Of a DNA stretch of 64,000 nt, positions 24,721 to 53,699 are shown in pieces. The notes beneath the pieces are model-generated. The model did not search any database. It worked only from the letters and a program-made list of their open reading frames with translations, and was not told the origin of the DNA. The translations under genes were made by a program, and so were the position numbers. The stretch is from assembly GCA_963921275.4 (NCBI GenBank), contig OZ001293.3:5216001-5280000 (forward strand), read 5' to 3'. Numbering within the stretch: the first letter of the stretch is position 1; every line of letters begins with the position of its first letter. The stretch is from an uncultured Hormoscilla sp. (GTDB taxonomy: Bacteria > Cyanobacteriota > Cyanobacteriia > Cyanobacteriales > Desertifilaceae).

Positions 24721-25172
24721 TACCTGATAATGAACTTTTACTATACTATGTGGCTCTTCGTGAAATGGTATGCGTTCATTGCCATCGGAATAGCCTAAAA
24801 CACTTGCTTCGTCTAGGGTTGAGGTTGTCGCCGCGCGGGAGCGACTGATCTGCAAGGCACAGGCGTTGGAACCATTATTGGTAAAGGGTTTCAGGCGCAT
24901 TAGCTATGATTTTAGCATACTAGATTGGGAAGAGCCTACTATGTATTAGGGGTCGAGCTGGGAATCGCTTCGGAACCCTCCCATTCGGAACCGGACTTGC
25001 GACTTTCACCGCATCCGGCTACTGGGTAGTAGGTTCTTTGTCAATGGTAGGTAACTTTTGGATTACTCCCGTTGTCCCTTGTCCCATGCGATTTGGCTCC
25101 TTTCCTGGTTGGTGAGTGGCGCTGCCGGATAACCTTTAGTGTCACCATTGTCATGTCCGTTTTACCAGTAAT

Positions 25173-26693
25173 ATTAAACTAAGTAAGGGTGTCACCACTC
25201 CTACTCGTCTTCAGAACCGGACTTGAGACTTTCACCTCATCCGGCTCCTCAGTAACGTCATCCTTGTCATGGATACGGCTATTACTACCATCACTGGCAG
25301 TTTTAGTATCGTGGCAATGTTTGTGCAGCAACTGTAGATTGGGATACCAGTCCTTGCCCCCTTTGGATAGGGGTAGGATGTGGTCTACTTCCCATTTGTC
25401 GCCGTCCCTAAACGTTAGTCCGCATTGTTCACATTTGCCCTTTTGTCTTTTGAGCAGGTTCACGACCCTTGTGCTCAACTCTGGGCTCTTACCTAATCTT
25501 ATGCTCCAATATGGTAGGTTACCGTCGTATGGGCTAGCTGTCCCTTTTACCTTTATTTGTCTGATTATCTCAGTTTCGGCGTGTTTGGTTAGCGTCACCT
25601 CTGTGCTTTTGTCTGTCTTACCTCTGAAACACCATTTAACTTCCTGGTTTACAGACCAGTATTTACTAGCTATCCAGTGGCTTGACTTGTTGGGATGCCT
25701 TCTCTTTGCCCATTGCCATAGTATCTCCCATAAGTATTTATCCATGTTGGCGTAAGTTTCCTTACTTACCACCGTTCTGAAGTAGTTGGCCCATCCCCGT
25801 ATTACCGGGTTTAGCCTGCTAATCAGGGCTGCTTGTGGTGCCGTTTTATGGCTGGTTACGATTTGCGCTAATCGTTCTTTATGCTTCCCTATAGATTTCT
25901 TGCTGGGCTTGACTATGGTTTTGAAGCCTAGGGGGGATTTTACCAGTAACCTTTGGAGTCTGCGAACCATCCGCTCGTTGCCTTCCAGTGCCGCTCTGTA
26001 AATTCGTTTTTGCAACTTAAAGACTACCCGCTCCAGCCGAGGCCAAGGAATATCCTTCCATTCATTCATCGATTCTGAAACCGTGCTCATGACGTATGCA
26101 TTGCTACTTACAACTTCACAATTGACGTTACCGTGAGGGCGTCAGCGTATCCTATCCATTACAGACAGGCGTTTGCTTCTCCACGAAATCTCTCCCAAGT
26201 ATGACCTGCCTGATGAAAGCAGATGTTGCGCCTGTGGTGGCTACTCTACCTATCGACCAGTGGTAGAGAGTGCATACCTGGGTTACTTCGTTCCTCTAGA
26301 TGATTGGTTGTAGTTTTAGGTGGACTCTATATGCCGGGTTTATTGTCAGTGCTTATTGGTCGGTTAGGGAACCGCCAATGACCATTATCCTTTCCCTTTT
26401 GGGTCAGCGTGTAAGCCTTTCCGCTGGTTGATGTGACGACACTTATGAGTTTTCGCTTTCGCTCACCATGACCACTTGCTTGGCGATCACCGATTTAGGC
26501 TACCAGTCAGTGCGCCTTTTAACCCCGCTTTACGGATTGATGCCATCGCTACCGTAGGGGTTACGCTTTCACTCCTGCACCTGGAGGGGTGGGCTTTCAC
26601 CACCATCATCTAAAAGTTGTCAGGGCTAATGGAACCCTGAGTGGTCCAAATTTTTGACTTGTGTCAAGTTATTTTACACTAAACGAATCGCAC
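25173..26693 (-). mobile_element. group II intron encoding an RT-deleted intron-encoded protein (inner intron)
   Basis: 5' GTGCGATTCGTT at 26693; D5 GAGCCGGATGAGGTGAAAGTCTCAAGTCCGGTTC; 3' TTAGTTTAAT at 25173. Confidence 0.9.
25179..26090 (-). CDS. group II intron-encoded protein retaining the N-terminal extension, maturase X domain and HNH endonuclease, RT core absent
   Basis: W..I.W..LERVVFKLQKRIYRA fused to GFKTIVKPSK...LNPVIRGWANYF; CEQC...EVDHILPLSKGG...NLQLLHKHCH; no YADD or PQG motif. Confidence 0.88.
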   Translation of the reverse strand: MSTVSESMNEWKDIPWPRLERVVFKLQKRIYRAALEGNERMVRRLQRLLVKSPLGFKTIVKPSKKSIGKHKERLAQIVTSHKTAPQAALISRLNPVIRGWANYFRTVVSKETYANMDKYLWEILWQWAKRRHPNKSSHWIASKYWSVNQEVKWCFRGKTDKSTEVTLTKHAETEIIRQIKVKGTASPYDGNLPYWSIRLGKSPELSTRVVNLLKRQKGKCEQCGLTFRDGDKWEVDHILPLSKGGKDWYPNLQLLHKHCHDTKTASDGSNSRIHDKDDVTEEPDEVKVSSPVLKTSRSGDTLT

Positions 26694-27199
26694 CTATACC
26701 TCATCACGGACTAGCTTTTGCTATGGTGCCAGTGAAGGGTTCATAACATGTTTAGAGTTACAGTTTCAACCTGAGACTTCCTACTATCACCGACCCACGT
26801 CGGCGTATCCTGGGCATTACCCCAGGCATTTGCTTCTTGGGGGCAGGCTTGGGCTCCCACTCGTGGCTTGCGCTTCACATCTCACTGGTCCTGACGGACA
26901 GCTCACGAGGGGTTCCAGCGCATTAAGCCTTATTTCGCTGGTTGGGTTTAACGAGGTTTACATAGGTTCGCCTGTTCTAGCCATGGACATCATCGAGCGC
27001 GTCCTCACCGGTAAGGGCTACCAGTTATCCTACATTTGAGTTCTCGCTTAGCACCACGACGATGTTATTTCGCAGCACCTCCAACCGGTGTTACCCCCGT
27101 ACCTGGGGAGGGGGAATTAAACCCCCATGATTACCAGAGTTCCTAGTTTCCTAGGCCAGCGTTCCGTATATGACTACGTTAGGCTGGAACTCATCGCAC

Positions 27200-27283
27200 G
27201 GGAATTTAACCCCCATGAATACCAGAGTTCCTAATTTCCTAGGCTAGCGTTCCGTGTTTGACCAGGTTAGGCTAGAACGAATA
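27200..27283 (-). ncRNA. group II intron 5' fragment
   Basis: ATTCGTTCTAGCCTAAC...GGGGGTTAAATTCCC homologous to the first ~90 nt of sibling introns. Confidence 0.75.
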
Positions 27284-28117
<834 letters not shown>

Positions 28118-28273
28118 TGCACTAACCTAGTTCTGTCAAGAAGACGGACAACTATCCGAAAACCGTTCGAGAATTCGCAAATCTTCGCCCAGGTTCTAGC
28201 ATAAGCCAAAATACTCATTACAAAAATGGGATGCACCCATGTGCAACTCCTTCAGTTCCATTCACATATATTA

Positions 28274-29285
28274 ACTCAAGTTGCGACCTATAAAAATTGG
28301 ATACAAAAAGCTATGATAAAGAGAATTATTTTCAACTCTAATCCCTTAGATGTAACAGCATGAATTGACTTGGGAAACAAATTGGTGATTCGACTAAAAC
28401 AGGTTTCAACTTGTTTTCTTGTTACTTTTTGTATATATTCAAAACAAGAAGATTCTTTTCTTTTTGAGTTCTTTTTTCGCAAAGCTTTTAACATTATACT
28501 TGACGACTCTTTTAGTAAATCCTCTAATTGATAATCATTATAAGCTTTATCTCCATAAACTATTGAATTTGATGGTAAGTCAAAGCCAAAAGATTGCAAA
28601 ACTTTAACATCATTATAACTACCAGGATCTAGATAAAATTCTATTGGCTTTCCATTTTTGTTTACCAACATATGAACTCTTAATCCATAAAAATAACGTT
28701 TTTTACTGGCAATATACCCTCGATATTCTTCCTTGTTATAAATTTAGCATCTATCAATCCTAATATTATCACATACTGGCACCGGGAAACTATCAAGAAT
28801 ATATTCTTGACCCGGATTGAGCTCTTTAAATGTTTGAGCTATAACTTGGAAGAAAAACATCCAAATTGCTTCGTCAATATTGTGTAATCGACGATTGAAC
28901 CTACTTTTACTTAACAGATTTTTTATATACTTGTGTTCGACCATAAATTGACAAGAGCGATCGTGGTGTCCTCCGAAAAAATATGCAGCAACTAATCCGA
29001 CTGTCATCACTTCGGCATTGTTCATTTTTACTTGTGGATCTTCTTTTATATTTAACGCTTTTAGTAGCTCGTCACAAAGAACAAAAATTGTTGTAATCAT
29101 ATCTTCCATCATCTACATCCCCCAGCAATTAACTATTATTTTAGTACATTATAACCTATAAACAGCCAACCCGCCGTCTAGCACAAAAAAAATATAATTT
29201 TGTATCAAAAGCTACGAAATATCCCAAATATCTGTAAAGTCTAAGTGGGTAATTCATATTTTTTTTAATAGGTCGCAACTTAGGT
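28274..29285 (-). mobile_element. IS982-family element (1012 bp), transposase with a premature stop
   Basis: terminal IRs ACYYAAGTTGCGACCTA, 7-bp TSD TATATTA; near-identical to 42928-43939 but CAA>TAA after DRC. Confidence 0.92.
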
Positions 29286-29455
29286 TATATTATAACTTAG
29301 CCCTACCCCTCCCACCGTAACTTGCGTCACCGGTCCAACTCACGGTTTGTCCCAGAGGGCATTCCTGTCTGCCCTAGCCACAGAACGCAAAGAAATATTA
29401 AGATGGAAGTGAGCAGAACTGTTCGAAATTGGCCCCACTACTGAGTGAAAAATTC

Positions 29456-30019
29456 ATGACTACTGAAGTACTGGTAGAAAAGAAAAAGCTGGAAAAGCCC
29501 CCCTTACAGATCCATAACTTGGGCGATCGGGTGTTGCGCCAGCCAGCGAAGCGGGTATCACGGGTAGACAACGAGATCCGACAACTAGCCAAAGAAATGC
29601 TGCAAACCATGTATAGCGCTGATGGCATTGGTTTAGCAGCGCCCCAAGTAGGAGTGCTCAAGCAGCTGCTGGTGGTAGACTGTAAACCAGACGAAGCCGA
29701 TAATCAGCCAGTAATTTTGCTCAACCCCAGCATCAAGAAATTTAGCCGCGAACTGTGCCTCTTCCAGGAGGGGTGCCTCAGCATTCCCGGAGTCTTCCTA
29801 GATGTGAAACGTCCAGAAGCAATAGAAGTAGCCTACAAAGATGTGAACGGATGTCCGCAGGCCTTAACCACAACAGGACTGCTAGCTAGAGTAATTCAGC
29901 ATGAACTGGATCACCTCAACGGCATCATGTTCGTGGACAGGGTGGAGAATGTGCTGGCCTTGAACCAAGAACTGGCCAAAAACGGCTTTTCTGCCCAAGC
30001 AGTCAAGCCAGTAGCTTAA
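29456..30019 (+). CDS. def: peptide deformylase
   Basis: GIGLAAPQVG, EGCLS and HELDH motifs. Confidence 0.98.
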   Translation: MTTEVLVEKKKLEKPPLQIHNLGDRVLRQPAKRVSRVDNEIRQLAKEMLQTMYSADGIGLAAPQVGVLKQLLVVDCKPDEADNQPVILLNPSIKKFSRELCLFQEGCLSIPGVFLDVKRPEAIEVAYKDVNGCPQALTTTGLLARVIQHELDHLNGIMFVDRVENVLALNQELAKNGFSAQAVKPVA

Positions 30020-30150
30020 TTTTCACTTCTCTTGGGAAGCATCTCAAGCATGAATTAAGAAACCCGGTTTTTACTGAAAACGGGTTAGAGGGCTACCACT
30101 TCTGTGTAAGTGTACGTACCAATACAGTTCGTTGAATAATAATGATGTTT

Positions 30151-30197
30151 GTGCGATTCGTTCCGGTATAAACCATAAGGTGAAATCCGGGCTGTGT
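30151..30197 (+). ncRNA. group II intron 5' remnant
   Basis: GTGCGATTCGTTCCGGTATAAACCATAAGGTGAAATCCGGG resembles the start of the 31956 and 52738 introns. Confidence 0.6.
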
Positions 30198-30267
30198 CAT
30201 TGACAATACTCCGGACAAAATTAGGAGGCTATGGCCCCGTAGGCAAGCAGGTTCTGGTAGTTCCTTC

Positions 30268-30360
30268 GATGTCTCCTGGTGCTGCCGAAACGTAGGAGCG
30301 CGGTTGAGCACTACCCACGTTTCGGCAGCGCGCTAAAAGCACAGCTGGTGGGGAGACATC
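30268..30360 (-). repeat. two nested mini-hairpin elements (44-bp family)
   Basis: outer arms CGATGTCTCC/GGAGACATC, inner arms GCTGCCGAAACGT/ACGTTTCGGCAGC; both loops carry the reverse complement of GTGC..(TA)GCGC. Confidence 0.65.
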
Positions 30361-30401
30361 TTTGTGAGATTTAATCTTTCCTTGGCTCATACAAAGAAAT
30401 A

Positions 30402-31580
30402 AGTAGTCAGACAAAATTAATTACATAGTTTTCCCCAAATTCTTTGAGAATTTTTTCAACAGATGTAACTAAGGTTTTCCAGCAAGAATAAGCATCGATT
30501 TCAAGCCACGAGTATTTAATAAACTGCCATAAGATTTCAATTAAATTCAAATGAGGGGAATAAGTGGGTAGTCTAAAGAGTGTAATATTGCGTTCCTTCC
30601 ATTCTTCAATCTTATCTTGAATAGCATCACTGGTATGGAAAGAGGCTTGGTCTGCTACAATTACTGTTGGCTTTTCCATTTTGGCGGGGAAAAACGCATC
30701 AATACAAGCGATAACTACATCTGAATTAATACTTTGAGTAGATACATAAGCTTCTAAATGATTGTGTCTATTCATAATTCCTAATACATTTAATCGGCGA
30801 CTACGACGACTAGTAACTTCTATATATTCTCCAATGTTTTGCCATCCATAAGGCACACAAGGAATTAAAGAAAACCCACTTTCATCTAAATAATACAAGT
30901 TGATTTCCCCCAAATCGTCTAACCGTTTCAGTTCAACAAGAGTTGCTTTTTTTTCCTCATACTCTTGAGCTGGCGGGCTGACAGCTACCCCTTTACGCAT
31001 CCGATGCCAACTCATATTCATTGTTTTCAAGATTCTCTGAACAGTTTTAACACTTGTTTCAATTCCCCATTCTTCTTTGATTTTAGCCACCACTTTTTTT
31101 AATTGCCTCGGTTCTTCTTCAGTCCAGGCTTTAATTTTTTCTTTTTGTTCGATACTAAAGGTTTGCTTACGACCTCTTCCCGACTTATTATCTAGTCCTA
31201 CCATTCCCTCTGAATCCCAATTTTCAATCCAATTGTAGATAGTTCTGTAACTAACATCAAAGATTTTCATAAGTTCTTTAACTTTTTTATGTTCTTGATT
31301 GAGCAAAAGTAAACAATGTGCTCTTTGACGAACTTGATGATGGCGACTTTGACGATAAATTCGTAAGAGCAATTTTGCAGAAAGCTCATTTATTTCGCGC
31401 ATTAAAATCATTCTTAATTCCGACTAAATCCCAGTTAGATTATGTCAAATATTACCAGCAGGGGATGAGCGTGAAAACCGACTCCCCGTTAGTTTGACAA
31501 AAATATGCTACATGTACGAGTACCTATATCTAGTATAACAAGTTTTGCCGACTTGGTGCAATTAATTTTGTCCAACTACT
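30402..31580 (-). mobile_element. IS630-family element with intact 334-aa transposase (30407-31411)
   Basis: HTH plus YLDESGF, DQASFH and LPTYSPHLNLIE motifs; IRs AGTAGT..GACAAAATTAATT flanked by TA. Confidence 0.92.
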
Positions 31581-31697
31581 TAAATAAGTTCATGCATCAT
31601 GCAGGGTACATCTCAGTTAGGCGACGAGTAATTATACTTAGTGCAAGTATCCCTCAAAACGGTACATAATTTAGGCACTGTTGACCACCCTTGACCC

Positions 31698-31955
31698 ATG
31701 AACTCCCAAAAGCAGGCTGAACTCCAGCAACATCTTGACGCGATTGCCGCGATTCTCTACCAGGAAGCCGACCCCACTGAACTCACCACCCTTGAAGGCA
31801 TTGAGAAAAACGTTCGTGCGCTTGCCCAAGAACACGTCTGGCCTCAACTAGGAATTTTTTTATCAACCGTACAAGATCTCGCGATGCTGACTGGGGTGAG
31901 CATCTCCCACAGTACGCTCCAACGCTTTGTTCAACGAGAGGACTGGTCTGAGGTA
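31698..31955 (+). mobile_element. ISKra4-like transposase fragment interrupted by an intron
   Basis: QQHLDAIAAILYQEADPTELTTLEGIEK...GIFLS; TGVSISHSTLQR. Confidence 0.7.
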
Positions 31956-32495
31956 GTGCGATTCGTTCCGGCATAAGCCAGTAGGTGAAAGTCGGGTCTG
32001 GCTCTATCAGCCAGATAACTCTGGTTATCATGGGGTTTAAATTCCCCTTCCCCAGGTACGGGGGTCGAGGGTACTACCGGTCGGAGGTGCTGCGGAGTCA
32101 CATCACCGTGGTGTGGAGCGAGGACTTAAATGTAGGATAACTGGCAGCCTAAGCCGGTGACGCCGCTAGGAAAGATGTTAATGGTTAGAACAAGCGAACC
32201 TATGTAAACCTCGTTAACCAGAACCAGCGGAAGAAGGCTTATGCGCTTGCCCAAAAAGGGAAATGGTAGTTAGTATTAGCTCTTGCCTCTGGCTAATAAC
32301 GTACTCAAAGAACTCTCGGGGTATAGTAGGAACCTAAAAGCATCGCGAAATGATACCAGGGAACGGAGTAACCTCTCGTGAGCTGTCCCCATTTGGACAA
32401 GTTAGATGTAAAGCGCAAGCCACGAAGAGGAAGGATGTCCTAAGAAGCTAACGCCCGGGGTAATGCTTGTGGATATGCAGACGTAGGACGGATAT
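31956..32495 (+). ncRNA. 3'-truncated ORF-less group II intron
   Basis: near-identical to 52738-53277; lacks D4-D6. Confidence 0.85.
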
Positions 32496-32512
32496 AAAAC
32501 TCAACTCCGTGG

Positions 32513-32568
32513 CTGTGTCCCTTAACATGCATGAGACGATAGTATCTCATGCATGTTAAGGGACACAG
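32513..32568. repeat. 56-bp near-perfect hairpin element
   Basis: ctgtgtcccttaacatgcatgaga ... tctcatgcatgttaagggacacag. Confidence 0.8.
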
Positions 32569-32724
32569 GTTGCTTGCCCTTGACTGTTGTCTTGCTGTTT
32601 TGGCTTTCCGGACCGGCCGTGAAAGAGATATCTGCTCCTTGCTCTTGTCCCAGGGTCCATGGCTGCGCCAGCCATGGCTCGCCACCCATGGCTGCGATAC
32701 GCGCTAAAGCGATTGTCAATTCTC

Positions 32725-32912
32725 ATGAGCAAAAGCCGAAAGACAAATAGAGACCATGGTAAAAAGACCCAACGCCCAATGGTTGAAGATGAGGTGGTGG
32801 CAGAGCAGCTCGAAGCCTTACTAACTCCCGCCATCATCTCTCAAGAAGCCTATTATCGCCAAATGGGTTTGAGAGATAGAATACTCAACTTACCATTAAT
32901 GGTTGCAGCTGT
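32725..32912 (+). mobile_element. IS4-family transposase N-terminal fragment
   Basis: KTNRDHGKK...QLEALLTPAI...YYRQMGLRDRILNLPLMVAAVL, truncated. Confidence 0.75.
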
Positions 32913-32924
32913 ACTTGCTAGGGA

Positions 32925-33780
<856 letters not shown>

Positions 33781-34179
33781 AGTTAACTTCACAATGCATA
33801 GAGAAAGTGAAAACACTTGGGTCATGCTGGAAAATAAAAGCAGTACTGTCCTCGATGCACGTCTAAGTCTACAATTAAAATTTGGCGAACAAGCCCTATT
33901 TTTTACATAACCTGGGGGGCGATCGCCAGATGTTTAAAAATGCAGAAACCAGAATCATAGCTAGGAAAAGCATGATGAGTACCGCTAGCAGTATTGCAGG
34001 CCAAACTGTGATGCAAGGCTAATTGAGCTGTGAGAATCGTCCCTGGGCCTTGACATCGACTGTACTTTCATAGTAAGGTTGCACAATTACGGGATGATTT
34101 AACCAGATACAGGTATGAAATCATAACGTAAATAGTATAAAAGTAACTTAATTGAAAGCTTTAACATTTATTCGGATTT

Positions 34180-34780
34180 TGAGTAACACAATGTTTTTCT
34201 TTTTAAGCGAGCGAGATAATGTCTTAATCGACAGTTTTCACCTTCAACACGAGTCATGTATGTTTTACTCACTATCTGGTCAATATCTTCAATAAACTTT
34301 GGATATACTGACCAACCATCCGTCACCTAAAAAAATGATGCCTTTTATGATTTCTCACAATGGCTGTTTCTGCCGAACAGTCTCCTAAAGTCCATGCTAT
34401 AATTCCAGGTTGAAAATAATTCACAACTGTCCATAACCACTTTTTATTCTTTTTTTACCCACATAAGTATGTAACTCGTCAATCTCTGAAACCAAGGCGT
34501 ATATCATAGTTTTCGGGGAGAAAAGGCAAAGGTTTAGCTACTTGTTTTATCCAATTTATAACAGTATTATGCTTGACATCTGTGATTCTTTCAATTCCTC
34601 GCCGTTCCCATTAAGGTACATTTTTCGACAATTTTCTTTCACCTCTTTCGGATAACCTCGTGGAGAATAATATTCAATAAACTGGCGACCACAATTTTTA
34701 CAAAGGAAATTTTGTTTACCGCGCCGATGACCATTTTTATTGATTTGTTCAGAACCACATTGTGGACATTTCATATTCAA
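34180..34780 (-). mobile_element. IS1-family transposase pseudogene
   Basis: CPQCGS..INKNG..RGKQNFLCKNCGRQF zinc finger; downstream EIDELHTYVGKK and SKTYMTRVEGEN fragments. Confidence 0.85.
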
Positions 34781-35398
34781 CTCCTTGAAATCATATATCA
34801 GCCTTAATATCCATTATACCACTGATTGGTACTACTGGGTAAAATTAGCTTATACTGATTATAAATTTATGATAAGCTATTGCAGATTATCATAATCTGC
34901 AATAGCTTATCATCCCGTGATTGTGCAACGCCAGCTCGTACATATGCTGGGGCATGGACTAGTAGTCCACACCGCAAATATATCTGATAATATAGCTAGC
35001 CGAGGCAATAACTTGCGTCAGGATTGGCTGAAACCCTTGCCGGGCCATAATTTCAGTGGTGCTCCCTACCGCAATAAGAGCACAAATGTTGGCTAGTGTG
35101 TTATAATCACAGCTAAGTTACAAAAACACAAAACGAAAGAACATGGCCCGACCGACGAAACCGCTCAACCTCATGCCAGAACACTCCCGAACTGCTCTCA
35201 GGGATTGCCCGCAGTCGTGAAACGCCGCACAGGTGGTGCGGACACAGATTGTCCTGAAAGCGGCCGCCGGCGATAATAACAAAACGATTAGCCAAGACGA
35301 CATGTGGGAAGATCCTGTCGGTCTTTGGCGGAAGAGGTGGATAGAGGGTGCCCATGAGGACCGAAAAATTCGCGGGTAAGTCTAAAGAATTGCGGGTA

Positions 35399-35483
35399 GA
35401 TGTTTCCCCTTTTGTGCGACTACGATGTTTCCCCTTTTGTGCGATTAGCGCTCCCGGGAAACATCGAGCTCTCGGGAAACATC
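35399..35483 (+). repeat. two nested 44-bp mini-hairpin elements inside an IS630 gene
   Basis: absent from the homologous IS copy near 60130-60150; inner copy 35423-35466. Confidence 0.85.
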
Positions 35484-36348: not shown

Positions 36349-36392
36349 CGATGTCTCCCCCTTTGTGCGAGTAGCGCTCCCAGGAGACATCG
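36349..36392 (+). repeat. 44-bp mini-hairpin element inside an IS630 gene
   Basis: CGATGTCTCC...GTGCGAGTAGCGCT...GGAGACATCG; absent from the homologous position near 56610. Confidence 0.88.
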
Positions 36393-36501
36393 AAGGTTGA
36401 AGAACTCATGCATTCGTATTCTCGCATTCATTGATTTCTTTAATGATACCTTAGCTAAACTGTTTCGCTGGACTTATATCGGTAAGCCGTTGCTCATCTA
36501 A

Positions 36502-37927: not shown

Positions 37928-37966
37928 CAGGTATAATTGTCAGCAGAATCAGCAGAATTTCTGAAA

Positions 37967-38281: not shown

Positions 38282-38292
38282 AATTAGTAGGT

Positions 38293-38841: not shown

Positions 38842-38916
38842 CAGTAGCAAATTTAGGCTAAACGGGTAGTAGTTGGGAACCCCGATCTGCTTGGGCTCGA
38901 CTTTTCTCAACCAGCC

Positions 38917-39594: not shown

Positions 39595-39629
39595 TTGTTA
39601 GTTGTCAGTTGTTAGTTGTCAGTTGTTAG
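39581..39629 (+). repeat. heptamer tandem repeat (TTGTYAG)7, STRR-type
   Basis: ttgttag/ttgtcag x7 overlapping the stop codon. Confidence 0.9.
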
Positions 39630-42651: not shown

Positions 42652-42756
42652 AACTGGTAGTTTAATGTGCGATTCGTTCCGGCGTAACTGGACACCAGGT
42701 TCAGGATAGCTGGGTGGGGCAACCCACAACTCAGACGTTATGAGGGTTAGATTCCC

Positions 42757-44670
42757 GTGCGATTCGTTCCGACGTAACTGAGTAATCAGGATAGTCGGGT
42801 GGGGTTTAAACCCACAACTCAGACGTTATGGGGGTCAAATTCCCCCCTCATGTACAGGGGTGACACCGGTCGGAGGTGCTGTGGAGCAACATCACCATTG
42901 GTGCTAAACGAGGACAAATGTAGGATAACCTAAGTTGCGACCTATTAAAAAAAATATGAATTACCCACTTAGACTTTACAGATATTTGGGATATTTCGTA
43001 GCTTTTGATACAAAATTATATTTTTTTTGTGCTAGACGGCGGGTTGGCTGTTTATAGGTTATAATGTACTAAAATAATAGTTAATTGCTGGGGGATGTAG
43101 ATGATGGAAGATATGATTACAACAATTTTTGTTCTTTGTGACGAGCTACTAAAAGCGTTAAATATAAAAGAAGATCCACAAGTAAAAATGAACAATGCCG
43201 AAGTGATGACAGTCGGATTAGTTGCTGCATATTTTTTCGGAGGACACCACGATCGCTCTTGTCAATTTATGGTCCAACACAAGTATATAAAAAATCTGTT
43301 AAGTAAAAGTAGGTTCAATCGTCGATTACACAATATTGAGGAACCAATTTGGATGTTTTTCTTCCAAGTTATAGCTCAAACATTTAAAGAGCTCAATCCG
43401 GGTCAAGAATATATTCTTGATAGTTTCCCGGTGCCAGTATGTGATAATATTAGGATTGATAGATGCCAAATTTATAACAAGGAAGAATATCGAGGGTATA
43501 TTGCCAGTAAAAAACGTTATTTTTATGGATTAAGAGTTCATATGTTGGTAAACAAAAATGGAAAGCCAATAGAATTTTATCTAGATCCTGGTAGTTATAA
43601 TGATGTTAAAGTTTTGCAATCTTTTGGCTTTGACTTACCATCAAATTCAATAGTTTATGGAGATAAAGCTTATAATGATTATCAATTAGAGGATTTACTA
43701 AAAGAGTCGTCAAGTATAATGTTAAAACCTTTGCGAAAAAAGAACTCAAAAAGAAAAGAATATTCTTGTTTTGAATATATACAAAAAGTAACAAGAAAAC
43801 AAGTTGAAACCTGTTTTAGTCGAATCACAAATTTGTTTCCCAAGTCAATTCATGCTGTTACATCTAAGGGATTAGAGTTGAAAATAATTCTCTTTATCAT
43901 AGCTTTTTGTATCCAATTTTTATAGGTCGCAACTTGAGTTAGGATAGCTTCCAGCCCTGAGGAGGTAACGCCGCTAGGAAAGATGTCCAGGGTTAGAACA
44001 CGCAAATCCTTGTAAGGGTCGTTAAACCAACCGGTGAAATAAGGCTGATACACCGGGCACAAAAGTGCAAAGCAGTTAGAGCTAATGCTGAGAATTCATT
44101 AGTTTTGTACACAAATAACTACTGGCCTAAAGAGGAGACCTAAAGACATCGTGAAATGACGTTTGGGAACGAAGTAACCTCCGTGGTTCTGTCTCTAGGG
44201 ACCAGTCAGATGTGAAGCGCATGACCGCGTGAGGAGAGATGGCCCGAGAAGCCAATGCCTAGGGTAATGCCTATGGATATGCAGACGCGGGTCGGTGATA
44301 GTAGGAAATCTCAGGAGAAAGTAGCTCTCTAAATGTACTAAGCCAGTGGCAACACTAGGAAGTAATGATGGACTAAAATCCTAACCAGGTAAAAACTTGA
44401 TGCCCCCAAGATATGGGCCCTGTTAGTAAAGAGCGGTTTAAGTGGTTTTTTTTCCAGTTCTCCCCCGCAAACCTTCCGGAGTTAGGTAATCAATTGGTTC
44501 ATCGACCAACCAAAAGGAGTAAAATTTCATGAGATAAGGGACAACGGGAGTAATCTCTAGTAATCCTACCCGTGACAAGGCCCTACTACCCAGTAGCCGG
44601 ATGCGGTGAAAGTCGCTCTTTAGGTTCCGAATGGGAGGGTTGGGGAGCGATTCCTAGCTTGACCCCTAAT
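42757..44670 (+). ncRNA. ORF-less group II intron (inner), interrupted by IS982
   Basis: GTGCGATTCGTTCC at 42757; 3' CTTGACCCCTAAT at 44670. Confidence 0.9.
42928..43939 (+). mobile_element. IS982-family element with intact 274-aa transposase (43101-43925)
   Basis: IRs ACCTAAGTTGCGACCTA/TAGGTCGCAACTTGAGT, 7-bp TSD TAGGATA; DSFPVPVC, YFYGLRVH and YGDKAY motifs. Confidence 0.95.
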
Positions 44671-45516
44671 TTCCCTCATGTACAGGGGTGACACCGGCCC
44701 ACCGTTCCGGAAAAATCGGTGCTGTGGAGCAACATCACCATGGTGCTGAGCGAGGGCAAATGTAGGATAGCTTCCAGCCCTGAGGAGGTAACGCCGCTAG
44801 GAAAGATGTCCATGGTTAGAACAGGCAAATCCTTGTAAGGGTCGTTACCCAGAACCGGTGAAATAAGGCTGATACACCGGGCTCAAAAGTGTAAGCAGTT
44901 AGGACTAATGCTGTTGAATCATTAGTTTTGTACACAAACAACTGCCGGACTATAAAGGAGACCTAAAGACATCGTGAAATGACGTTTGGGAACGAAGTAA
45001 CCCCCGTGGCTCTGTCCTTATGGACCAGCGAGATGTGAAGCGCATGACCACGCTCTTAAGGATGGCCTAAGAAGCAAATGCCTGGGGTAATGCCTAGGAT
45101 ATGCAGACGTAGGTCGGTGATAGTAGGAAATCTCAGGAGAAAGTAGTTCTTATATGTGTTAAGCCAGTTCGCAAGAACCAGGAAGCAATGTGGATTAAAA
45201 TCCTAACCGGGTAAAAACATGGAAGCCCCTCAGATATGGGCAATGTTAGTAAAGAGTGGACCCAGGGTTTATCCTGTTATCCTCCATGAAGCTTCCGGAG
45301 TTAGGTACTCAATTAGTCTAGTTGACTGACCAACAAGGAACAAAATTTCATGAGACAAGGGACAACGGGAGTAATCCCTAGTAATCCTACCCATGACAAG
45401 GGCCTATTACCCAGTAGCCGTGTGCGATGAAAGTCGCTCTTCAGGTTCCGAATGGGAGGATTGGGAAGCGATTCCCAGCTCGACCCCTAACATGGATGCA
45501 TCCCAATCTAGCGGCT

Positions 45517-45559
45517 CGGAGTCTCCGGGAGCGCTACTCGCACTTCTCGGGGGACTCCG
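45517..45559 (-). repeat. 43-bp mini-hairpin element
   Basis: reverse complement CGGAGTCCCC..GTGCGAGTAGCGCT..GAGACTCCG. Confidence 0.8.
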
Positions 45560-45667
45560 GCGAAGCATTCGGATATTAAATTTGTCGATTTATCCCATAA
45601 GCGATCCGCCCGAATGCTTCGCCCCTACAGGTTAATTTGTATAAATGGGATGCTCCCGTTTATTATT

Positions 45668-45880
45668 TTAGGCAGCAGGTCGATCGTATAACACTATTAG
45701 CTGTTCAGCCCGGAGTGCCAAACTGGCGTAGGTGCAGCCATCATTGTCGCTGAATTCCACTTCAAAAACATTTGGCGCTAAAATTTCGACCACTGTACCA
45801 ACTTGCCCTCGGCGCAAATCCCTATCGGGCAAATTATCAGTTAGCACTACGACATCAAGCATCTGGATGTTACTATTCAT
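45668..45880 (-). CDS. DUF4926 family protein
   Basis: LDVVVLT...LRRGQVGTVVEIL...FEVEFSDNDG. Confidence 0.85.
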   Translation of the reverse strand: MNSNIQMLDVVVLTDNLPDRDLRRGQVGTVVEILAPNVFEVEFSDNDGCTYASLALRAEQLIVLYDRPAA

Positions 45881-45892
45881 TTAATCTCCTCC

Positions 45893-46228
45893 TTATTTCA
45901 GAACATAACAACTGGTTAGTCGCAGGAAGTCTTCTCCTGGGCGAATGATCCAACTGCTACGAAATCTTGCCTATCCAGCTTGTCTGCTCATTTCCAAGTC
46001 TAACCTGTAGCGTTGACCATATTCATCCCGTTCAGTAGGAGTGGCATCGCCAGTACGGGCAGCTGCTAACAACTCCTCTCGCAATTCTTTAGCATTTTCA
46101 GCAGTCAGTCCTAGTATAACAGCAAAGACACGGGCTTTGTGCTGACCGCGTCCGTGATTGGGGTTCAAACAGTAGTCGCGAAGTTTCTCAATATCTACAA
46201 CTGCACGTTTAAAGTTTGGTAGTTTCAT
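45893..46228 (-). pseudogene. DUF6883 family protein with an in-frame TAG
   Basis: KLRDYCLNPNHGRGQHKARVF...; reading continues past TAG (45971-45973) as ARFRSSWIIRPGEDFLRLTSCYVLK. Confidence 0.75.
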
Positions 46229-46320
46229 CCGTCACTCCCAGCATTGCTTCTCAAGCTTGACCTATCTGTACTATGATTATAAAGTATTTTTCCTGTTTTT
46301 GCGTTTTGCTAAAAAAAACC

Positions 46321-46803
46321 GTGAAAACTATATCGCAACTTGACGCGCCGAGCGTTCCCGATCGCAGCTTAGGCGGCTTTGACTTGAGAACTCCTATTCG
46401 CGACCTCAGTGATTTATTATTCGGCTTAGGTTCGTGGACAGAAGGGTTCTGTGAATTAGCTTCACCATTTGAAGCCCGGTATCGCCTGGGAAAAGGTGAA
46501 ATTGAACTTGCTGTTGACGTGAGAAATGGCAAGGTGTTTAAGATCGCAGCTTACTCGGGATACAAAGGAAAGCTATTCGACAAAATTGTTTTGGGGATGA
46601 GAGTGAAAGTAGCAATGGAGTATGAACCCAGGTTATTTTACAGTGAAGCAGAAGCAGCAATTCTCTGTCAGGATTTCACGGGTCTGACTCTGGACGTTCC
46701 TGAAATCCGCCACTGGAATCAATCCCAGATATGACGATTTCGGCAATTTCCGTACATATCGCAGAACTTTACACGCCGCAAGGCATGTCTGGCGAGTGGT
46801 AAC
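46321..46803 (+). pseudogene. hypothetical protein, probably frameshifted near 46708
   Basis: protein-like ORF to 46734 with a plausible continuation PPLESIPDMTISAISVH...GEW in another frame. Confidence 0.4.
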
Positions 46804-46856
46804 CATAGTCTGTCACCATCTTGACCCACAAAAAGGGCTGACATTTCCCCATTGAC

Positions 46857-48064
46857 TCACTCCTCTGTCGATAGCCAGTCTTCTAACTTGAGTCCCGGAA
46901 CCCGCAGCATGTCGGAATCGTGAGAAACTAGAGTCAAGTCACGGGCGATCGCCGTTGCCGCGATTAAAATATCTGTATCCTCTAGCAGAGTTCCCTTACC
47001 TCTTAAATCTGCATGAATTAATGCCGCGCTTTCGATTATCTCGATTTCATCTAACAATGCCACGGTAACCGCTTCGCAAAAGCTATTAAAATCAGACAGT
47101 TTCCTGGTAGCATTGGCATACAACAAGCCTCTCTTGGTCTCATAATAGCTGATAATGTGCGATGAGTTCTAGCCTAACGTAGTCAAACGCGGAACGCTAG
47201 CCTAGGAAACTAGTAACTCTGGTATTCATGGGGGTTAAATTCCCTCTCCCCAAGTACGGGGGTAACACCGGTCCTCGGTACTGCGGGGTAACATCACCGT
47301 GGTGCTAAGCGAGAACTTAAATGTAGGATAGCTGGTAGCCTAAACCGGTAACTCCGCGCTCTCAGATGTCCAAGGTTAGAACAAGCAAACCTATGAGAGC
47401 CTCGTAACTATTAATCGGCGAAATAAGGCTTTATGCGCCGGAGACAAAAGTCACTGTAGTTAGTGTTAGTTGTATTATCTGGCTAACAACGTACTCAAAT
47501 AACTACCGGGGTGTAGTAGGAACCTAAAGGCATCGCGCTCCGGAGACCAGGGAACGAAGTAACCCCTCGTGGGCTGTCCAACTGGACCAGTCAGATGTGA
47601 AGCGTATGCCACGAGAGGGAGCCCAAGCCTGCCCTCAAGAAGCTAATGCCTGGGCGGTGTCTGGAGCCTGCCGAGTCCTTCAGGACAAGAGCATGCGGAA
47701 GACGCCGAGTAATGCCCGGGATACGCCGACGTGCGGTGAGGGTGGGTGATAGTAGGAAGTCTCAGGTAGAAAGTAAATCTGAAAATGTTATGAACCCTTC
47801 ACTATAGGTGATGAGGTATAGATGTAAAGGAGCAAAATCGCATGGGATTTGTCGCGAGTGCCGATATGCCTAAGGACAAGCCCCAGCGGTGAAAGTCGCT
47901 CTTTAGGTTCCGAACGGGAGGGTCGGAGGGTGACTTCCGGCTCGACCCCTAATACTTATATACAGCTTTTCTCCCCAAAACTTCGCCTCCTCTATTTTCT
48001 CTCTAATTTTTTCATCATTCTTCAAATGAGCCGCGATAATCTTCGTATCTAGCAGATAACTCAT
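46857..48064 (-). pseudogene. vapC: PIN-domain (VapC-like) toxin split by an antisense group II intron
   Basis: 47954-48064 (MSYLLDT...KLYIS) joins in frame to 46857-47156 (IISYYETKRG...DILIAATAIARDLTLVSHD) giving 136 aa. Confidence 0.9.
47157..47953 (+). ncRNA. ORF-less group II intron (797 nt), D5 damaged
   Basis: GTGCGATGAGTTC ... CTCGACCCCTAAT; EBS1 ATTATC matches upstream GATAAT. Confidence 0.9.
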
Positions 48065-48072
48065 TGCCAATT

Positions 48073-48375
48073 TTACCTTCCTTCTACTGCTGCGTCGAAC
48101 CTTTCGATTTGCTCTGGAGTTAGGTCTAAAAGCATCCCTGCCGTCGCCTCGATCGCCATTACACCCTTGATCCTTTCTGCCAGTCCCTCTTCATCCAGAG
48201 AAATAATATTTTCTGGAGAAACCTTATCTAACAGTTTAGAAAATATTTGCATCAGATCGTCTAGTTTAAGTTTCTCTTGATAGAGAGCATTGCTTTGCAT
48301 AAACTTATCGACCAAATTCGCTATCCGAATCATTGCTGTATCTTTTGCCGCTCCAACTTGAGTTACTTGAGTCAT
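48073..48375 (-). CDS. putative antitoxin upstream of vapC
   Basis: 100-aa ORF ending 8 nt before the vapC ATG; C-terminus LLDLTPEQIERFDAAVEGR. Confidence 0.65.
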   Translation of the reverse strand: MTQVTQVGAAKDTAMIRIANLVDKFMQSNALYQEKLKLDDLMQIFSKLLDKVSPENIISLDEEGLAERIKGVMAIEATAGMLLDLTPEQIERFDAAVEGR

Positions 48376-48409
48376 ATGTCCTCCTTGTCGTCTAGTTGAC
48401 ACTAAAAAT

Positions 48410-49441
48410 AGACATCTCCAAAATATAAATTTCTGCTATAATAAGATTTGAAAATTTAATTTTGTGACGAGTATTACCTGGACATATTTGCAAGCCAAGC
48501 CTAAAGAAGCAAAACGGCTCATCGGTATCAGCTATGAAAACTTAATACAACTTATTGCAATTGCTGTTGGATAAAAATCATAAAGAAAAGGTGGAAGAAC
48601 ACAAAACTAGATTGATACGTCGAGGGGCGAAACCTAAATTATTAGTAGAAGAGCAAATAATTTTAAATTTGATGTGTCAAGGATTAACATTCCAAGTATT
48701 AGGTATACTTTTTGGGTAAAAGCTAATGATATTTTTAATTATTGGCAAGATCTTTTCCGCTTTGCCGTTTACTTGAACAAAAAAAATGGAGAAGATGAAG
48801 AATATTTATCCAAACACAGAATATGAGTTGATAGTCGATGAGCAAGCCATACCAAGACCTAAAGACTATGAAGAGCAGAAAAAGTTTTACTCAGGTAAGA
48901 AGAAATACTTTGAAAAATTAATTAATTGTTTTACCTGGTAGCGTGCAGATCTTGTCGATGTTGTATCTGGAGAAAGAGGCCCAGCAAGCGATATAAATCT
49001 TGCGAGCGTCGTTTTCGATCCAGATCAAATTTTTGCAGGGGATAAAGCCTATATTGGAGAACCTCAAATAAAAACAACCGAAAAAACAGGAATTAACAGC
49101 TAAACAAAAAGAATAAAATAGAGATTTTTCTTCCCGTTTTCGTTGAACACGCCATAAGATTGGTTTTTCCGGGTTGCCAGCGAGCGATTTCGGTTAAATA
49201 TTGATAAATATGAATCAGTAATTTCGACAAAAGTTGGGTTGGTTAGATTGCGCGAATTTTAGAAGTATTAGAATCTGTTGATAGCTCTGAAAAACTTGAG
49301 ATTAACCAGTACCACCTTTGGATCTCTTTATTAACAGGAAATCTATCAAACCCCGATTCTGCCGTTTGAGTAACATATGTGATCATGGGAGGTAGAGCTT
49401 AAAACCCAGAGCTGACAAGGGTTTTATTTTTGGAGATGTCT
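48410..49441 (+). mobile_element. IS5-family (ISL2-like) element, heavily degraded
   Basis: IRs AGACATCTCCAAAA/TTTTGGAGATGTCT; EQKKFYSGKKK and FAGDKAYIG fragments. Confidence 0.8.
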
Positions 49442-49600
49442 AATTATCTAGTCCCGTTTTTAATTATCGCCTGTAATAGGGGGGCGATCTCTTTACCCTT
49501 CCACTTGTTCTGGGCCACTTTCTTTCGGGTGTGGTCAAAACCCGTTGATCAAGCATGGGATCTCCCGATCGCCGGATTCTCCCAAACCCTCGGATCCCCC

Positions 49601-49993
49601 CTAACCCCCCTTAAAAAGGATCGTCTCTGTGGGGATGTCGATGCTAACCTGGAATATGGCTTTCCCCACCTTGATGATATCGCCAGCTTTTAAGTCATGT
49701 TCGGGAAAAGTTATCCCTGCAGCTTCTTCTGGAGTTTGATCCTTTTGGCGCTGTCCAATTTTTTCCCCATTCAGGTAAGTGCCGTTTTTGCTGCCAAAGT
49801 CCCGCACTCGGATGTTGGGAGGGTTGATGTCTAGCAAACAGTGATAGCGGGAGATGCTGCGATGCTGTTCGTCATCGGGTATTTTAATCTGGCAGTCTTG
49901 GGCCCGACCGATGATGCAGGTGGTGCGTTCTGCAAAGATATATTCGAGTCCTTGCAGGTCTCCTTCCGTGATGGTGAGAGTGATTTTTGACAT
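49601..49993 (-). pseudogene. FHA-domain N-terminus, probably of a truncated signalling protein
   Basis: IIGRAQDC...SISRYHC...DFGSKNGTYLNG; ORF stops shortly after the FHA domain, close to an IS. Confidence 0.75.
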
Positions 49994-50504
49994 ATTTATC
50001 CCTTCGCAATTCACAATTCGCCATAGGGCTACACTGGGTAAACCCCATTCGTCAATTATAACTGTAAGGATCCTGTTTATACGGCAGGAAGGGAGCTGAA
50101 AAGGGAGCATCCCAGTTTTACACTAAGTAATTGTACTTAGTGTACGCCATTAAGATAAGCACAGCGTAAGCGAAGCATTTGGTTAACTGTCCAACTGTAT
50201 TAAGTAAATGCTTCTGACTACCATTTTCTCTGCTTTCAAAGTCTTGAAGATGCTCTTGTGTCTGCATAGAGGAGTTTTGATAATTCTTTGAGATGGTATT
50301 TAAGTTTTTGATTTTCTTCTGGGGTCATGTAGCCTGCTCTACCGTGGATATTTTTTCCATATTACCAGAATAACTTTTTTCTCGCTTAGCTTGCCGCTGC
50401 GGGAGTTGTGCAACTGGTCGATGAGAGCAAAGCCTTACCCTGCAAGGACTCAGCGCCGCCATCTCCCAACGGAAGGAAATTTGCACAAATGTATAGGACA
50501 CAAA

Positions 50505-50900
50505 TCACGAGTATTTATACTCATTGCCAAAGTGGGATGCTCTCGCTGAAAATCTTGAATACTTGACTTCACCACTGGATGGGGGCAGTTCTGTTATGGC
50601 GATCGTGCCCGTATTTACATCCTCGAAATAGATCTCGTTACCCATGCGTCCCTGGACGTGGAATGGGCCATGAAAAAACTTATATTCGGGAATGTCGATC
50701 AGGAGTAGGTCACGGATAATCACTTCTGAAGCGAATATTTGCTTACAAATCTCGGGGATGATGGCCTCTAGTAATGGACTCTGGCTCCGATCGCCGTATT
50801 CTATAAACTCGGGGTGATCGGCGAAGTGGTCCATGAAAAATTTCCAGATGTTGGATAAGTCTTTTTCCTTGACAAGTATTTGCTTTAGTTCGTCGTTCAA
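50505..50900 (-). CDS. hypothetical protein
   Basis: 131-aa ORF (IWKFFMDHFADHPEF...FFHGPF). Confidence 0.65.
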   Translation of the reverse strand: MNDELKQILVKEKDLSNIWKFFMDHFADHPEFIEYGDRSQSPLLEAIIPEICKQIFASEVIIRDLLLIDIPEYKFFHGPFHVQGRMGNEIYFEDVNTGTIAITELPPSSGEVKYSRFSARASHFGNEYKYS

Positions 50901-51112
50901 TCTTCATCTTCATAGGGTTTCCGAGGGAGAGAATCTTACTGCACTACTATACTCGATATCTGCGATCGACTGACGGTCCTGGATGATGACATCCCTTATT
51001 TTGGGCGCGATCGGGCCCCACGCAGTCTGCTGGTGCGATCGCGCCCAGATGACCTACTGCTATTATACCTGACTGGAGGAAGAGCCTCACGAGCCCATTC
51101 CCTGTCAGAGAC

Positions 51113-52716
51113 CTTGTCATTATCCACATTTTTTCAAGTAATCTTTGTGGCAAGCTCTACACCTATGCACAAGTCTTGGAACCTCCGCCAGCCCCGCCGT
51201 CTGCCAGCCAGGGTTACCATCTCCAGAACGACCAATGAAACCACCTTTCGCGAGCGATACTTTTCCAAAATTCTGCGGTTGTCAAATTATCATCGGGTAA
51301 ATTGAGATGCGCTACTAACACTTTTAAGCACTTGATGGGAATCAACTTAGAAGCTGGAAGTTCTGGAGTAGTACGGCGCTCGATTACGTAATTGTAACAA
51401 CCGATCCTGATACAATTGCTAAAAATCCCAGTAATGCTAATAACCCTGATGCTGTCTCTAGCTGCCGTTTCTCTATGGCACAACCAGTCTTCATGCATTT
51501 GTGATATTCGCACAATTTTCCAACTATACCAGTCTAATTGTTGTAAAGCATCCTCCGCATCTTGCACCTTCACAGTTGTAAATAAAATCCATTCTAATCC
51601 ATCATCAACTCCCGCTTCCCAACAACGAATGCACCATCCTGAGATGGTTTCTTCTTTTGAATAAGGACTGTTTAATGGTGGGTGAATGGTCAGCCCAAGC
51701 CACTTCCAACTTGACTGTACGTTGGGGTTCTCCATTACGACCACGTAACACCATCGTTTTATAAGTCATGCTCTCCAGAGTGCGAGCATAGGTTTTAAGG
51801 TTACTTTTAGTCCCCGAGGCCGTTGTCATCACTCGATGAAGACAAATTCTCACCAAGCCATGCCACCCTAAAGCTTGTGAAGGTTTAATGTCATCGAATA
51901 CATCACTCTCTATATCTCCAACACTCACCCATAACGACCCTGTTGTTAATAATGGAGTCCTACCTATTGACTCCACCATTTCCGCCCATTTGTCTCCTTC
52001 TGTACGAACATTTCCTTTTTTCGTTGGCGATAGGTTTTTTTCTCTTTTTTTGGCTCTAGACACATCCAAGTCTCCTGACCTGCTAGACCTAATATTTCTG
52101 GGTTGTCTGGTTTTGGGATAACTGCTAGACTACTATATACCATTATTCCTCTACCTTTACCATTTCCAATATATCCTATACCTTTTATGTCTTGACGCTG
52201 ACTATAATCTAATTCCGTAGTATCTTGCAGAAACAACACTACTGATGAATCACTTTCTCTAGCCCTCTCAATGGTCTTTTCCCAATGAGGTTTACTTAAC
52301 ATGAGTTACAAATGAGGTTTACTTAACATGAGTCACATCAGAAGAATTTAACAATCGATAAGCTGCTATAGCTTGACTCCATTGAGTCATTTGTTCAGGC
52401 CTACTGGCTGTTGGATTAGCTGCCATTGCCGCTCCCACTTTAATAGCTCTTTGTGTGCGACGGCTATCTCCCAAATCACAGGTTGACCATTGGGAAGTGG
52501 CCTATTTATTAATGTCTATTAACTCCTGCTGATTCATCATGTGTGATTTTTACTACAATTATTGCCTTGGGTGTGAGGAGACCGGTATACTACCGCAGTA
52601 TAACGGGGAAGTGAATCACCTATCACTGGCAGTATCAAGTTCCAGGCGATGTCCCACGTATGTGGGTGAAAACTACCCTATTTCCAGCTTAACACAAAAT
52701 GTGGGTAATGACAATG
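51113..52716 (-). mobile_element. IS4-family (IS50-like) transposase pseudogene
   Basis: IR-like ends TTGTCATTATCCACATTT/AAATGTGGGTAATGACAA; LGDSRRTQR, LQDTTELDY and LEWILFTT fragments. Confidence 0.85.
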
Positions 52717-52737
52717 CCAGAGACTGGGAACGAGGGA

Positions 52738-53663
52738 GTGCGATTCGTTCCGGCATAAGCCAGTAGGTGAAAGTCGGGTCTGGCTCTATCAGCCAGATAA
52801 CTCTGGTTATCATGGGGGTTAAATTCCCTTTCCCCAGGTACGGGGGTCGAGGGTACTACCGGTCGGAGGTGCTACGGAGCCACATCGCCGTGGTGCCTCC
52901 CGAGGACTTAAATGTAGGATAACTGGCAGCCTAAGCCGGTGACGCCGCTAGGAAAGATGCTAATGGTTAAACAAGCGAACCTATGTAAACCTCGTTAACC
53001 AGAACCAGCGGAAGAAGGCTTATGCGCTTGCCCAAAAAGGGAAATGGTAGTTAGTATTAGCTCTTGCCTCTGGCTAATAACGTACTCAAAGAACTCCCGG
53101 GGTATAGTAGGAACCTAAAAGCATCGTGAAATGATACTAAGGGAACGAAGTAACCTCTCGTGAGCTGTCCCCATTTGGACAAGTTAGATGTAAAGCGCAA
53201 GCCACGAAGAAGAAGGATGTCCTAAGAAGCTAACGCCCAGGGTAATGCCTGTGGATATGCAGACGTAGGACGGATATGGTAAGACACCCTTGGGAAAAGT
53301 AACCTTAATGTCACAGAACTAGGGAGAAATTCCGAAAGTACGAATTTTGGATTCAAATCTTAGCCAGGTAAAGTTCAGAGCCCTTACGAAAAGCGGAAAG
53401 CAGAATGGGGAAGATGTTAGTAAAGAGCGGCGAGTATGGTTTGCTGAACTATCCTCCGCGAACCTTCCGCAGCTCAGTACTTAAACGGTCCAATAGGATT
53501 GACCATAAGGGGTAAAATTTCAAAGGGTAAGGGACAACGGGGGTAACCCCCAGTAATCCTACTGATGACAACAGCTTACCAACCAGTAGCCGTGTGCGGT
53601 TCCAGTCGCTCTTCAGGTTTCGCTCTTGGAGGGTTGGGGAGTGATTCCCAGCTCGACCCCGAC
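52738..53663 (+). ncRNA. ORF-less group II intron (926 nt), D5 damaged
   Basis: GTGCGATTCGTTCC ... CTCGACCCCGAC. Confidence 0.9.
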
Positions 53664-53699
53664 CAAATCATGCTCCCTTGATAGGGAACATGATTTTTG

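Follow-up and report, generated by a model that had tools for sequence, protein, structure and literature searches.

Introns of the window

The window analysed here is a 64,000-nt stretch from an uncultured Hormoscilla sp. (C1:5216001-5280000; genome 7.03 Mb, assembly 96.7% complete), and the elements in question are its group II introns, above all those that lack an open reading frame (ORF) for a reverse transcriptase (RT). Ten 5′ and eight 3′ ends of group II introns were located in it. The Rfam model RF00029 (Intron_gpII), which an earlier reading of the bare sequence (the original prediction) had proposed as a check, recovered, at its gathering score, four minus-strand ends with domain V/VI, and self-comparison together with profile searches added four more on the plus strand; the plus-strand copies, whose domain V is mispaired in all four, escaped RF00029 even at E ≤ 1.

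Seven full-length ORF-less copies had been predicted, each with its own exon-binding site 1 (EBS1), a hexamer in a domain I loop that pairs with the six nucleotides just 5′ of the copy. Seven ORF-less 5′ ends can indeed be joined to a 3′ end, but only four of these introns are uninterrupted. The intron at 27283-28117 (minus strand, 835 nt, ending in ...CCCCGACT) belongs to family F1 with 72 near-identical copies, and its guide elements lie at 27865 (EBS2a), 27859-27863 (EBS2), 27791-27796 (EBS1), 27756 (EBS3) and 27649 (gamma); its boundary agrees with an empty allele at another F1 copy. The intron at 32925-33780 (minus strand, 856 nt) is one of the seven copies of family F6 and has an intact domain V (EBS1 GGTTAG at 33447-33452), whereas the domain V of the single-copy intron at 47157-47953 (plus strand, 797 nt, EBS1 ATTATC at 47474-47479) is mispaired on both strands. 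The last one, at 52738-53664 (plus strand, 927 nt, EBS1 TGCCTC at 53065-53070, ending in ...CCCCGACC), belongs to family F2, with 16 copies that all have a mispaired domain V; it ends one base later than the predicted 53663. The other three of the seven are the 42757 intron, which is split by an insertion sequence (IS), the 42667 intron, which is the outer member of a twintron, and the 27199 intron, which has no EBS1 hairpin; the 31956 copy, previously counted as full-length, turned out to be a 540-nt 5′ fragment.

All loop and flank pairs that had been listed were found again, six of them by script, i.e., TGCACT/AGTGCA at 28117 (6/6), GGTTAG/TTAACT at 33780 (6/6, two G-U), TGCCTC/GAGGTA at 31956 (6/6, one G-U), TGCCTC/GAGGGA at 52738 (5/6), GAGAAT/ATTCCC at 42757 (5/6) and GTTGAA/TTTAAT at 42667 (6/6, two G-U), and ATTATC/GATAAT at 47157 (6/6) by eye, as this copy was left unparsed by the script; the loop positions 44090, 44913 and 47474 were exact. 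The idea that every copy carries its own guide held between lineages, but not within families, where the guides are fixed. Since the 31956 and 52738 copies share one EBS1, retargeting has occurred per lineage and not per copy.

The remaining introns of the window are nested or truncated. A fourfold nest, one RT-type intron included, occupies 24945-28122 on the minus strand. Its outermost host is a further ORF-less intron (27200-28122) of which only the 5′ 88 nt are present (28118-28122 and 27200-27282), and into which the F1 intron and the 27199 intron were inserted. The latter (24945-27199) is ORF-less as well, lost its EBS1 hairpin through an internal deletion while retaining EBS2 (AACCC), and hosts the RT-type intron (25173-26693); its 3′ part (24945-25172) may belong either to the 27199 intron or to the one starting at 28122. 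The ORF of the RT-type intron (25179-26090, 303 aa) consists of an RVT_N half, GIIM (maturase X) and HNH, an in-frame loss having removed some 290 aa of its RT core, and is the sole fused ORF of this kind among 208 tblastn hits.

On the plus strand, the outer ORF-less intron of the twintron spans 42667-45491 (EBS1 GTTGAA at 44913-44918), with the inner ORF-less intron (42757-44670, EBS1 GAGAAT at 44090-44095) sitting after AGATTCCC in its domain I. This inner intron has in turn been split by a 1017-bp plus-strand IS (42925-43941; DDE transposase ORF at 43101-43925) that is 99.3% identical to a copy at 28272-29288. The whole 2.8-kb insertion (42652-45491) lies antisense to uvrB, 15 nt upstream of its start codon, so that no splicing from the uvrB transcript is possible, and it may cut the gene off from its promoter. 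An F2 5′ fragment (31956-32495, plus strand, 540 nt, EBS1 TGCCTC at 32284-32289) has the flank found for F2 copies within ISKra4 transposase genes and is followed immediately by a long perfect palindrome (32504-32560), and a 5′ stub of about 41-45 nt from another ORF-less intron is found at 30151-30195 (plus strand).

One lineage with EBS1 GGGAAT is inserted in other ORF-less introns at an ATTCCC that lies some 88 nt inside them (27200, 42757 and about ten more sites), other lineages aim at conserved sites of RT-type introns, and 41 5′ ends lie within another intron. In a 1180-nt contig from a run of another study (X7), an F1 copy (1 difference in 703 nt) is likewise inserted in an RT-type intron.

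Genome-wide families, boundaries and guides

A catalogue of the whole genome was built by iterated profile searches, in which an ORF-less type (A) and an RT type (B) were distinguished. It comprises 488 5′ ends (402 ORF-less type, 86 RT type) and 501 3′ ends with domain V/VI, all on C1 (398 ORF-less type, 81 RT type, 22 other); 433 ends could be paired, and the paired introns make up 6.9% of C1. The 339 simple short introns fell into 63 clusters at 95% identity, the biggest having 140 (F0), 72 (F1, including the window copy at 28117), 16 (F2, including 52738) and 14 copies. Among copies of the same length, 61/122 in F0 and 20/62 in F1 match the commonest sequence of their family exactly. By one pattern, 343 ORF-less-type ends were found here versus 2, 76, 86 and 142 in four congeners, and a search of 400 other genomes of the phylum with ORF-less-type domain I gave no full-length match, just a 50-nt piece in five of them. 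We infer that the ORF-less lineage is old, restricted to the genus and devoid of an RT.

The highest published per-genome count met in our literature search is 101 group II introns in Arthrospira platensis, which is also the top value of Miura et al. 2022 (PMC8919778), a figure obtained by different methods from ours. Any claim to a record count needs care, as a genome of the same order (G028, 3.8 Mb, one contig) has at least 106 RF00029 matches as well; three of three loci inspected there (L068, L072, L075) have no RT homology within 1.5 kb, so that this genome possibly harbours another swarm, of independent origin, made up of ORF-less introns or of domain V/VI repeats. Our literature search found no paper containing both 'Hormoscilla' and 'group II intron', and similar cyanobacterial ORF-less lineages may have been described earlier.

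By sequence and predicted fold, the repeats are group IIB introns without an ORF. Their 5′ end reads GTGCGA or GTGTGA in 487/488 cases (the search was seeded on a GTGYG-type motif), which agrees with the GUGYG consensus, and their domain V hairpin has the AGC triad and the two-base bulge, with all eight lower-stem pairs formed in 305/362 parsed ends. In a consensus fold of 51 lineages, domain VI has an unpaired A, the putative branch point, at the ninth base from the end. Subgroup IIB2 is a candidate assignment: most copies show its 5′ consensus GUGCGAUUC, and hairpins at positions 20-60, where IIB2 has additional stem-loops near the base of domain I, form in a single F1 fold but are absent from the consensus fold. 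The 3′ end departs from the AY consensus, for 341/398 ORF-less-type ends are CY (CC or CT) and 47 are AY. A precedent, in the available text of PMC4238363, is the CC end of RmInt1 from Sinorhizobium meliloti.

Four lines of evidence place the boundary at this CY end: the covariation of gamma and EBS3 (see below), the known target sequences within other introns, the restoration of a reading frame by exact removal in 84/327 insertions (versus 10 and 12 when the cut is moved by one base), and the empty allele of relatives, seen in two runs from two studies, which skips exactly 835 nt (GT..CT) and has no target duplication. As these runs (X1, X2) contain the host gene without the intron, they document an empty allele in relatives and not splicing; no empty-site joint for the window copies was found among the joints listed for four runs. 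An AY boundary was rejected: in F0, frames are restored in 43/139 insertions at the CY end but in 7 and 5 after shifts of -1 and -2, and shifts by three bases, which keep the frame, were ruled out by covariation instead.

The guides emerged from a covariation scan in which every exon position was compared with every intron column without prior assignment (about 51 lineages, F1 numbering). Exon positions -1 to -6 pointed to columns 322-327 (EBS1; Watson-Crick pairs in 31-41 of 46-51 lineages, 13-17 expected), -9 to -13 to columns 255-259 (EBS2; 35-47 of 51, 14-17 expected), -14 to column 253 (EBS2a-IBS2a, IBS being the intron-binding site; 44/51, 17 expected), +1 to column 362 (EBS3; 45/51, 20 expected), and the last intron base to column 469 (gamma-gamma′; 47/51, 24 expected). 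No comparable column was found for exon -7, -8, -15, -16, +2 and +3, nor did the scan find a delta-delta′ partner. In the consensus fold, the predicted loop is indeed EBS1, standing atop an 8-bp stem that has changed on both sides and is paired at 7 or 8 of 8 positions in 46/51 lineages.

At the level of copies, 343/402 ORF-less introns were parsed, with 53 EBS1 types. Taking one copy per type, EBS1 paired at 4.76/6 positions versus 2.63 ± 0.16 with shuffled flanks (maximum 3.15 in 2000 shuffles), EBS2 at 4.14/5 versus 2.22, and EBS2a at 0.80 versus 0.33; this bears out genome-wide the complementarity proposed for the window, although the shuffle test overstates independence because the lineages are kin. 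EBS3 pairs in 253/314 copies. Guides are constant inside families (F0 137/138, F1 71/71; F3 comprises two guide sets) and near random between lineages, where identity is 25-36% in the EBS columns versus 77% in the rest of domains I-III, and even at 90-93% similarity two lineages may have a different EBS1 as well as a different EBS2. According to the part of PMC8643678 available to us, the EBS2a-IBS2a pairing is RT-dependent and required for DNA integration, and ORF-less introns keep it only while they are mobilised in trans; its covariation here therefore points to RT-driven mobility.

Putative driving enzyme and routes of spread

The copies are non-autonomous, as had been proposed: RT homology was detected in 1/346 simple introns of the ORF-less type, and this one is chimeric, its 3′ end being of the RT type, versus all 48 simple introns of the RT type. 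Intact RT genes, also anticipated, exist elsewhere in the genome as fourteen stop-free RT-type ORFs of 591-609 aa, and the one that was scanned has RVT_N, RVT_1, GIIM and HNH. Given that no cognate RT was found and that the kinship between the ORF-less RNAs and the resident RT introns is distant, a non-cognate RT is the likely driver, and the copies of F0 and F1 that are still identical imply that the driver acted very recently. Candidates for a cognate enzyme among divergent RT loci were rejected, being broken or of other intron types. One divergent RT that is intact (600 aa, C1:1775400-1777700, minus strand) has YADG in place of YADD; a YAGD change is given for TeI4h of Thermosynechococcus elongatus in the available text of PMC2882425.

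Taken together, we have good confidence that about 400 ORF-less IIB introns of one genus-restricted lineage, with EBS sequences matching their sites lineage by lineage, have spread by likely retrohoming with an RT borrowed from resident RT-encoding introns. An ORF-less copy would be transcribed from a host promoter, and its RNA would bind an RT made in trans and leave as a lariat, which would reverse-splice into DNA paired with EBS1 (-1 to -6), EBS2 (-9 to -13), EBS2a (-14) and EBS3 (+1), whereupon the RT would copy the inserted intron. With short and tolerant pairing, each guide would find many sites, a changed guide would start a new wave of them, leading to 53 EBS1 types, and insertion into other introns and IS elements would produce nests such as those of the window. 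Splicing, mobility in trans and the trans-acting protein are putative steps, taken from established group II biology.

Several observations weigh against this explanation, in addition to the kinship of lineages in the shuffle test. The 5′ ends of 59/402 ORF-less copies were unparsed, EBS2a pairs in just 198/343 copies (about half in F0 and F1), 19/343 copies have three or fewer EBS1 positions paired, and a single-sequence free-energy fold of F1 lacks the EBS1 hairpin. The RNAs of the two types are colinear, but their identity over domains I-III is 59-67% versus 55-57% for shuffles under the same scoring, a domain IV profile had no significant match in 30 RT-type introns, and the search of simple ORF-less-type introns for a cognate RT found none. 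Two domain V variants, present at 73/501 ends, break three of eight lower-stem pairs while keeping the AGC, and a search for RNA of this organism turned up none, the two RNA runs found being from relatives at 92-94% identity that are without the intron.

The copies could instead owe their mobility to a cognate RT absent from the assembly, very recently lost, or encoded in an unseen intron of the ORF-less type, as a larger case of what is known from T. elongatus. The assembly is 96.7% complete, the loci inspected in the genus were 30 of 261 RT matches, related genera have RT-encoding introns whose 3′ end is of the same type (L011-L013; outside the clade of the genus in a quick tree), and faint, non-significant matches to the RT C-terminus (E 0.3-8) gather at the 3′ side of domain IV. 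However, all 25 readable ends among the 30 inspected loci are of the RT type (the other five had no readable end or ORF), none of the 346 simple ORF-less-type introns has RT sequence once the chimera is set aside, and domain I has no full-length match in the 400 other genomes. A cognate driver must also have been active very recently, since F0 and F1 copies are still identical, and we regard this alternative as rather unlikely.

Spread at the DNA level, with introns as IS passengers or through recombination and gene conversion and with EBS matches inherited from a few ancestral sites, is very unlikely. It would suit an IS-rich genome in which one ISKra4 site is shared by four complete F2 copies along with the 31956 fragment, and the shared domain V variants show that introns have recombined with each other. 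Yet F0 and F1 flanks have nothing in common beyond the IBS positions, which largely refutes such a spread for both families, twelve F2 copies lie at unrelated EBS-matched sites, and both the frame restoration at exact boundaries and the lack of a target duplication at the empty allele speak against it. An artefact of the assembly as the source of the many copies is less probable still: many copies are identical, and the best-matching runs may be the source sample, but flanks are distinct for each copy, summed contig depth over an F1 copy was 4207 and 7253 versus about 44 and 20 for unique DNA (two runs; depths are not a copy number), and three of four congeners carry 76-142 such ends.

Split genes, domain V variants and known systems

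Of 327 ORF-less-type insertions, removal restores a sense frame in 46, an antisense frame in 33 and both in 5, i.e., 26% in all versus 37% for random positions. Among the genes split by insertions in sense orientation are eno, zwf and nrdJ, all of them single-copy according to tblastn, as well as gltB, ectB and ectD, and domain V is intact in the four of these copies in which it was read (eno, gltB, zwf and nrdJ). If the cell needs eno, zwf, nrdJ and the like, these introns would have to be spliced there. GC skew (the strand bias of G over C) gave no clear origin of replication.

The mispaired domain V is found in all copies of F2 (16/16) and F4 (8/8) and in most of F3 (12/14), the zwf copy being one of the two F3 copies with an intact domain V. 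F2 has nonetheless spread to 13 distinct EBS-matched sites. The main variant occurs 51 times here versus 0, 0, 1 and 1 times in the congeners, and identical variants are found in lineages just 73-88% alike in domain I, which indicates recombination between introns. A genome-wide repeat motif as the source of the variants was not supported, as their 10-mers occur only 8-11 times outside introns, and the state of domain V showed no clear split by orientation (sense in 11/56 mispaired and 40/271 normal copies, with those restoring both frames counted).

These introns can be compared to short interspersed nuclear elements (SINEs). That they have been without an RT of their own since before the genus diversified, with a non-cognate RT as general splicing and mobility factor, is probable; the joint proposal of such a SINE counterpart in which, besides, the mispaired families retrohome by means of a domain V supplied in trans seems improbable to us. 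A tolerant domain V or a later recombination is the more likely explanation for the mispaired families. Were the joint proposal true, this bacterium, with core genes that depend on splicing, would present a proto-spliceosomal state that has arisen in nature.

The closest known system is that of T. elongatus, for which the available text of PMC2882425 describes 28 introns of subgroup IIB1 in six families (ORF-less TeI3 and RT-encoding TeI4) that are 85-100% identical and have clear ORF remnants, and demonstrates EBS divergence, ORF-less passengers, driver RTs and twintrons. Both genomes share an excess of ORF-less over RT copies, families defined by EBS, twintrons and IS insertion, while mobilisation in trans by driver RTs, demonstrated there, is only presumed here. 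The Hormoscilla genome differs in its roughly 480 introns, its 53 EBS1 types, ORF-less RNAs distant from the RT introns, the lack of a significant ORF remnant, mostly CY ends, an IIB2-type 5′ end and many insertions into genes. Derivation as in T. elongatus, i.e., 85-100% identity to a co-resident RT intron together with ORF remnants in domain IV, was not found.

With the dnaN introns of Trichodesmium erythraeum and its general maturase RIR (PMC4649490, PMC12584367) our introns share the ORF-less state in essential genes and the IIB2 5′ consensus, the RT being encoded in trans there. As far as the available parts of these papers go, that genome has about 17-24 introns, helper and clients are structurally related, and a family with 70-140 near-identical copies is nowhere mentioned. 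The A. platensis introns (PMC8919778, available in part) share a CL-type expansion in a cyanobacterium, their 101 being about a fifth of the count here with methods that differ, and group II introns that lack an ORF are called rare in bacteria in the accessible text of a review (PMC4424553). The mechanism is thus of a known kind, and this genome is set apart by the scale, by the fact that no cognate RT was found, by CY ends throughout families and by families that spread with a mispaired domain V.

The genome carries about 480 introns, of which five in six have no RT; together they occupy about 7% of the chromosome and split single-copy core genes. It can serve as a natural model that comes close to the intron invasion postulated for early eukaryotes. 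Three questions become testable with it: how a single RT turns into a splicing factor that serves unrelated RNAs in general, what keeps copy number in check (the target rules of F0 and F1 are relaxed), and how much drift domain V and the 3′ end can bear. In addition, 53 natural guide sets on one scaffold of 0.8-0.9 kb, with up to 140 target sites each, form a data set for the design rules of targetrons.

A few other features were noted. Six large acidic repeat proteins, partly duplicated, are clustered at window positions 7004-20265 (minus strand) and look by sequence like cadherin-like or RTX-type surface proteins; we take the minus-strand ORFs at 3145-4848 and 277-1914 to be lipoxygenase-like and subtilase-like, respectively, from their motifs. 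The nearest named relatives of the window intron RT are from Hormoscilla species, presumably sponge symbionts. Contig C3 (31 kb) has a GC content of 17.6%, unlike the remaining assembly, and may be foreign or organellar DNA.

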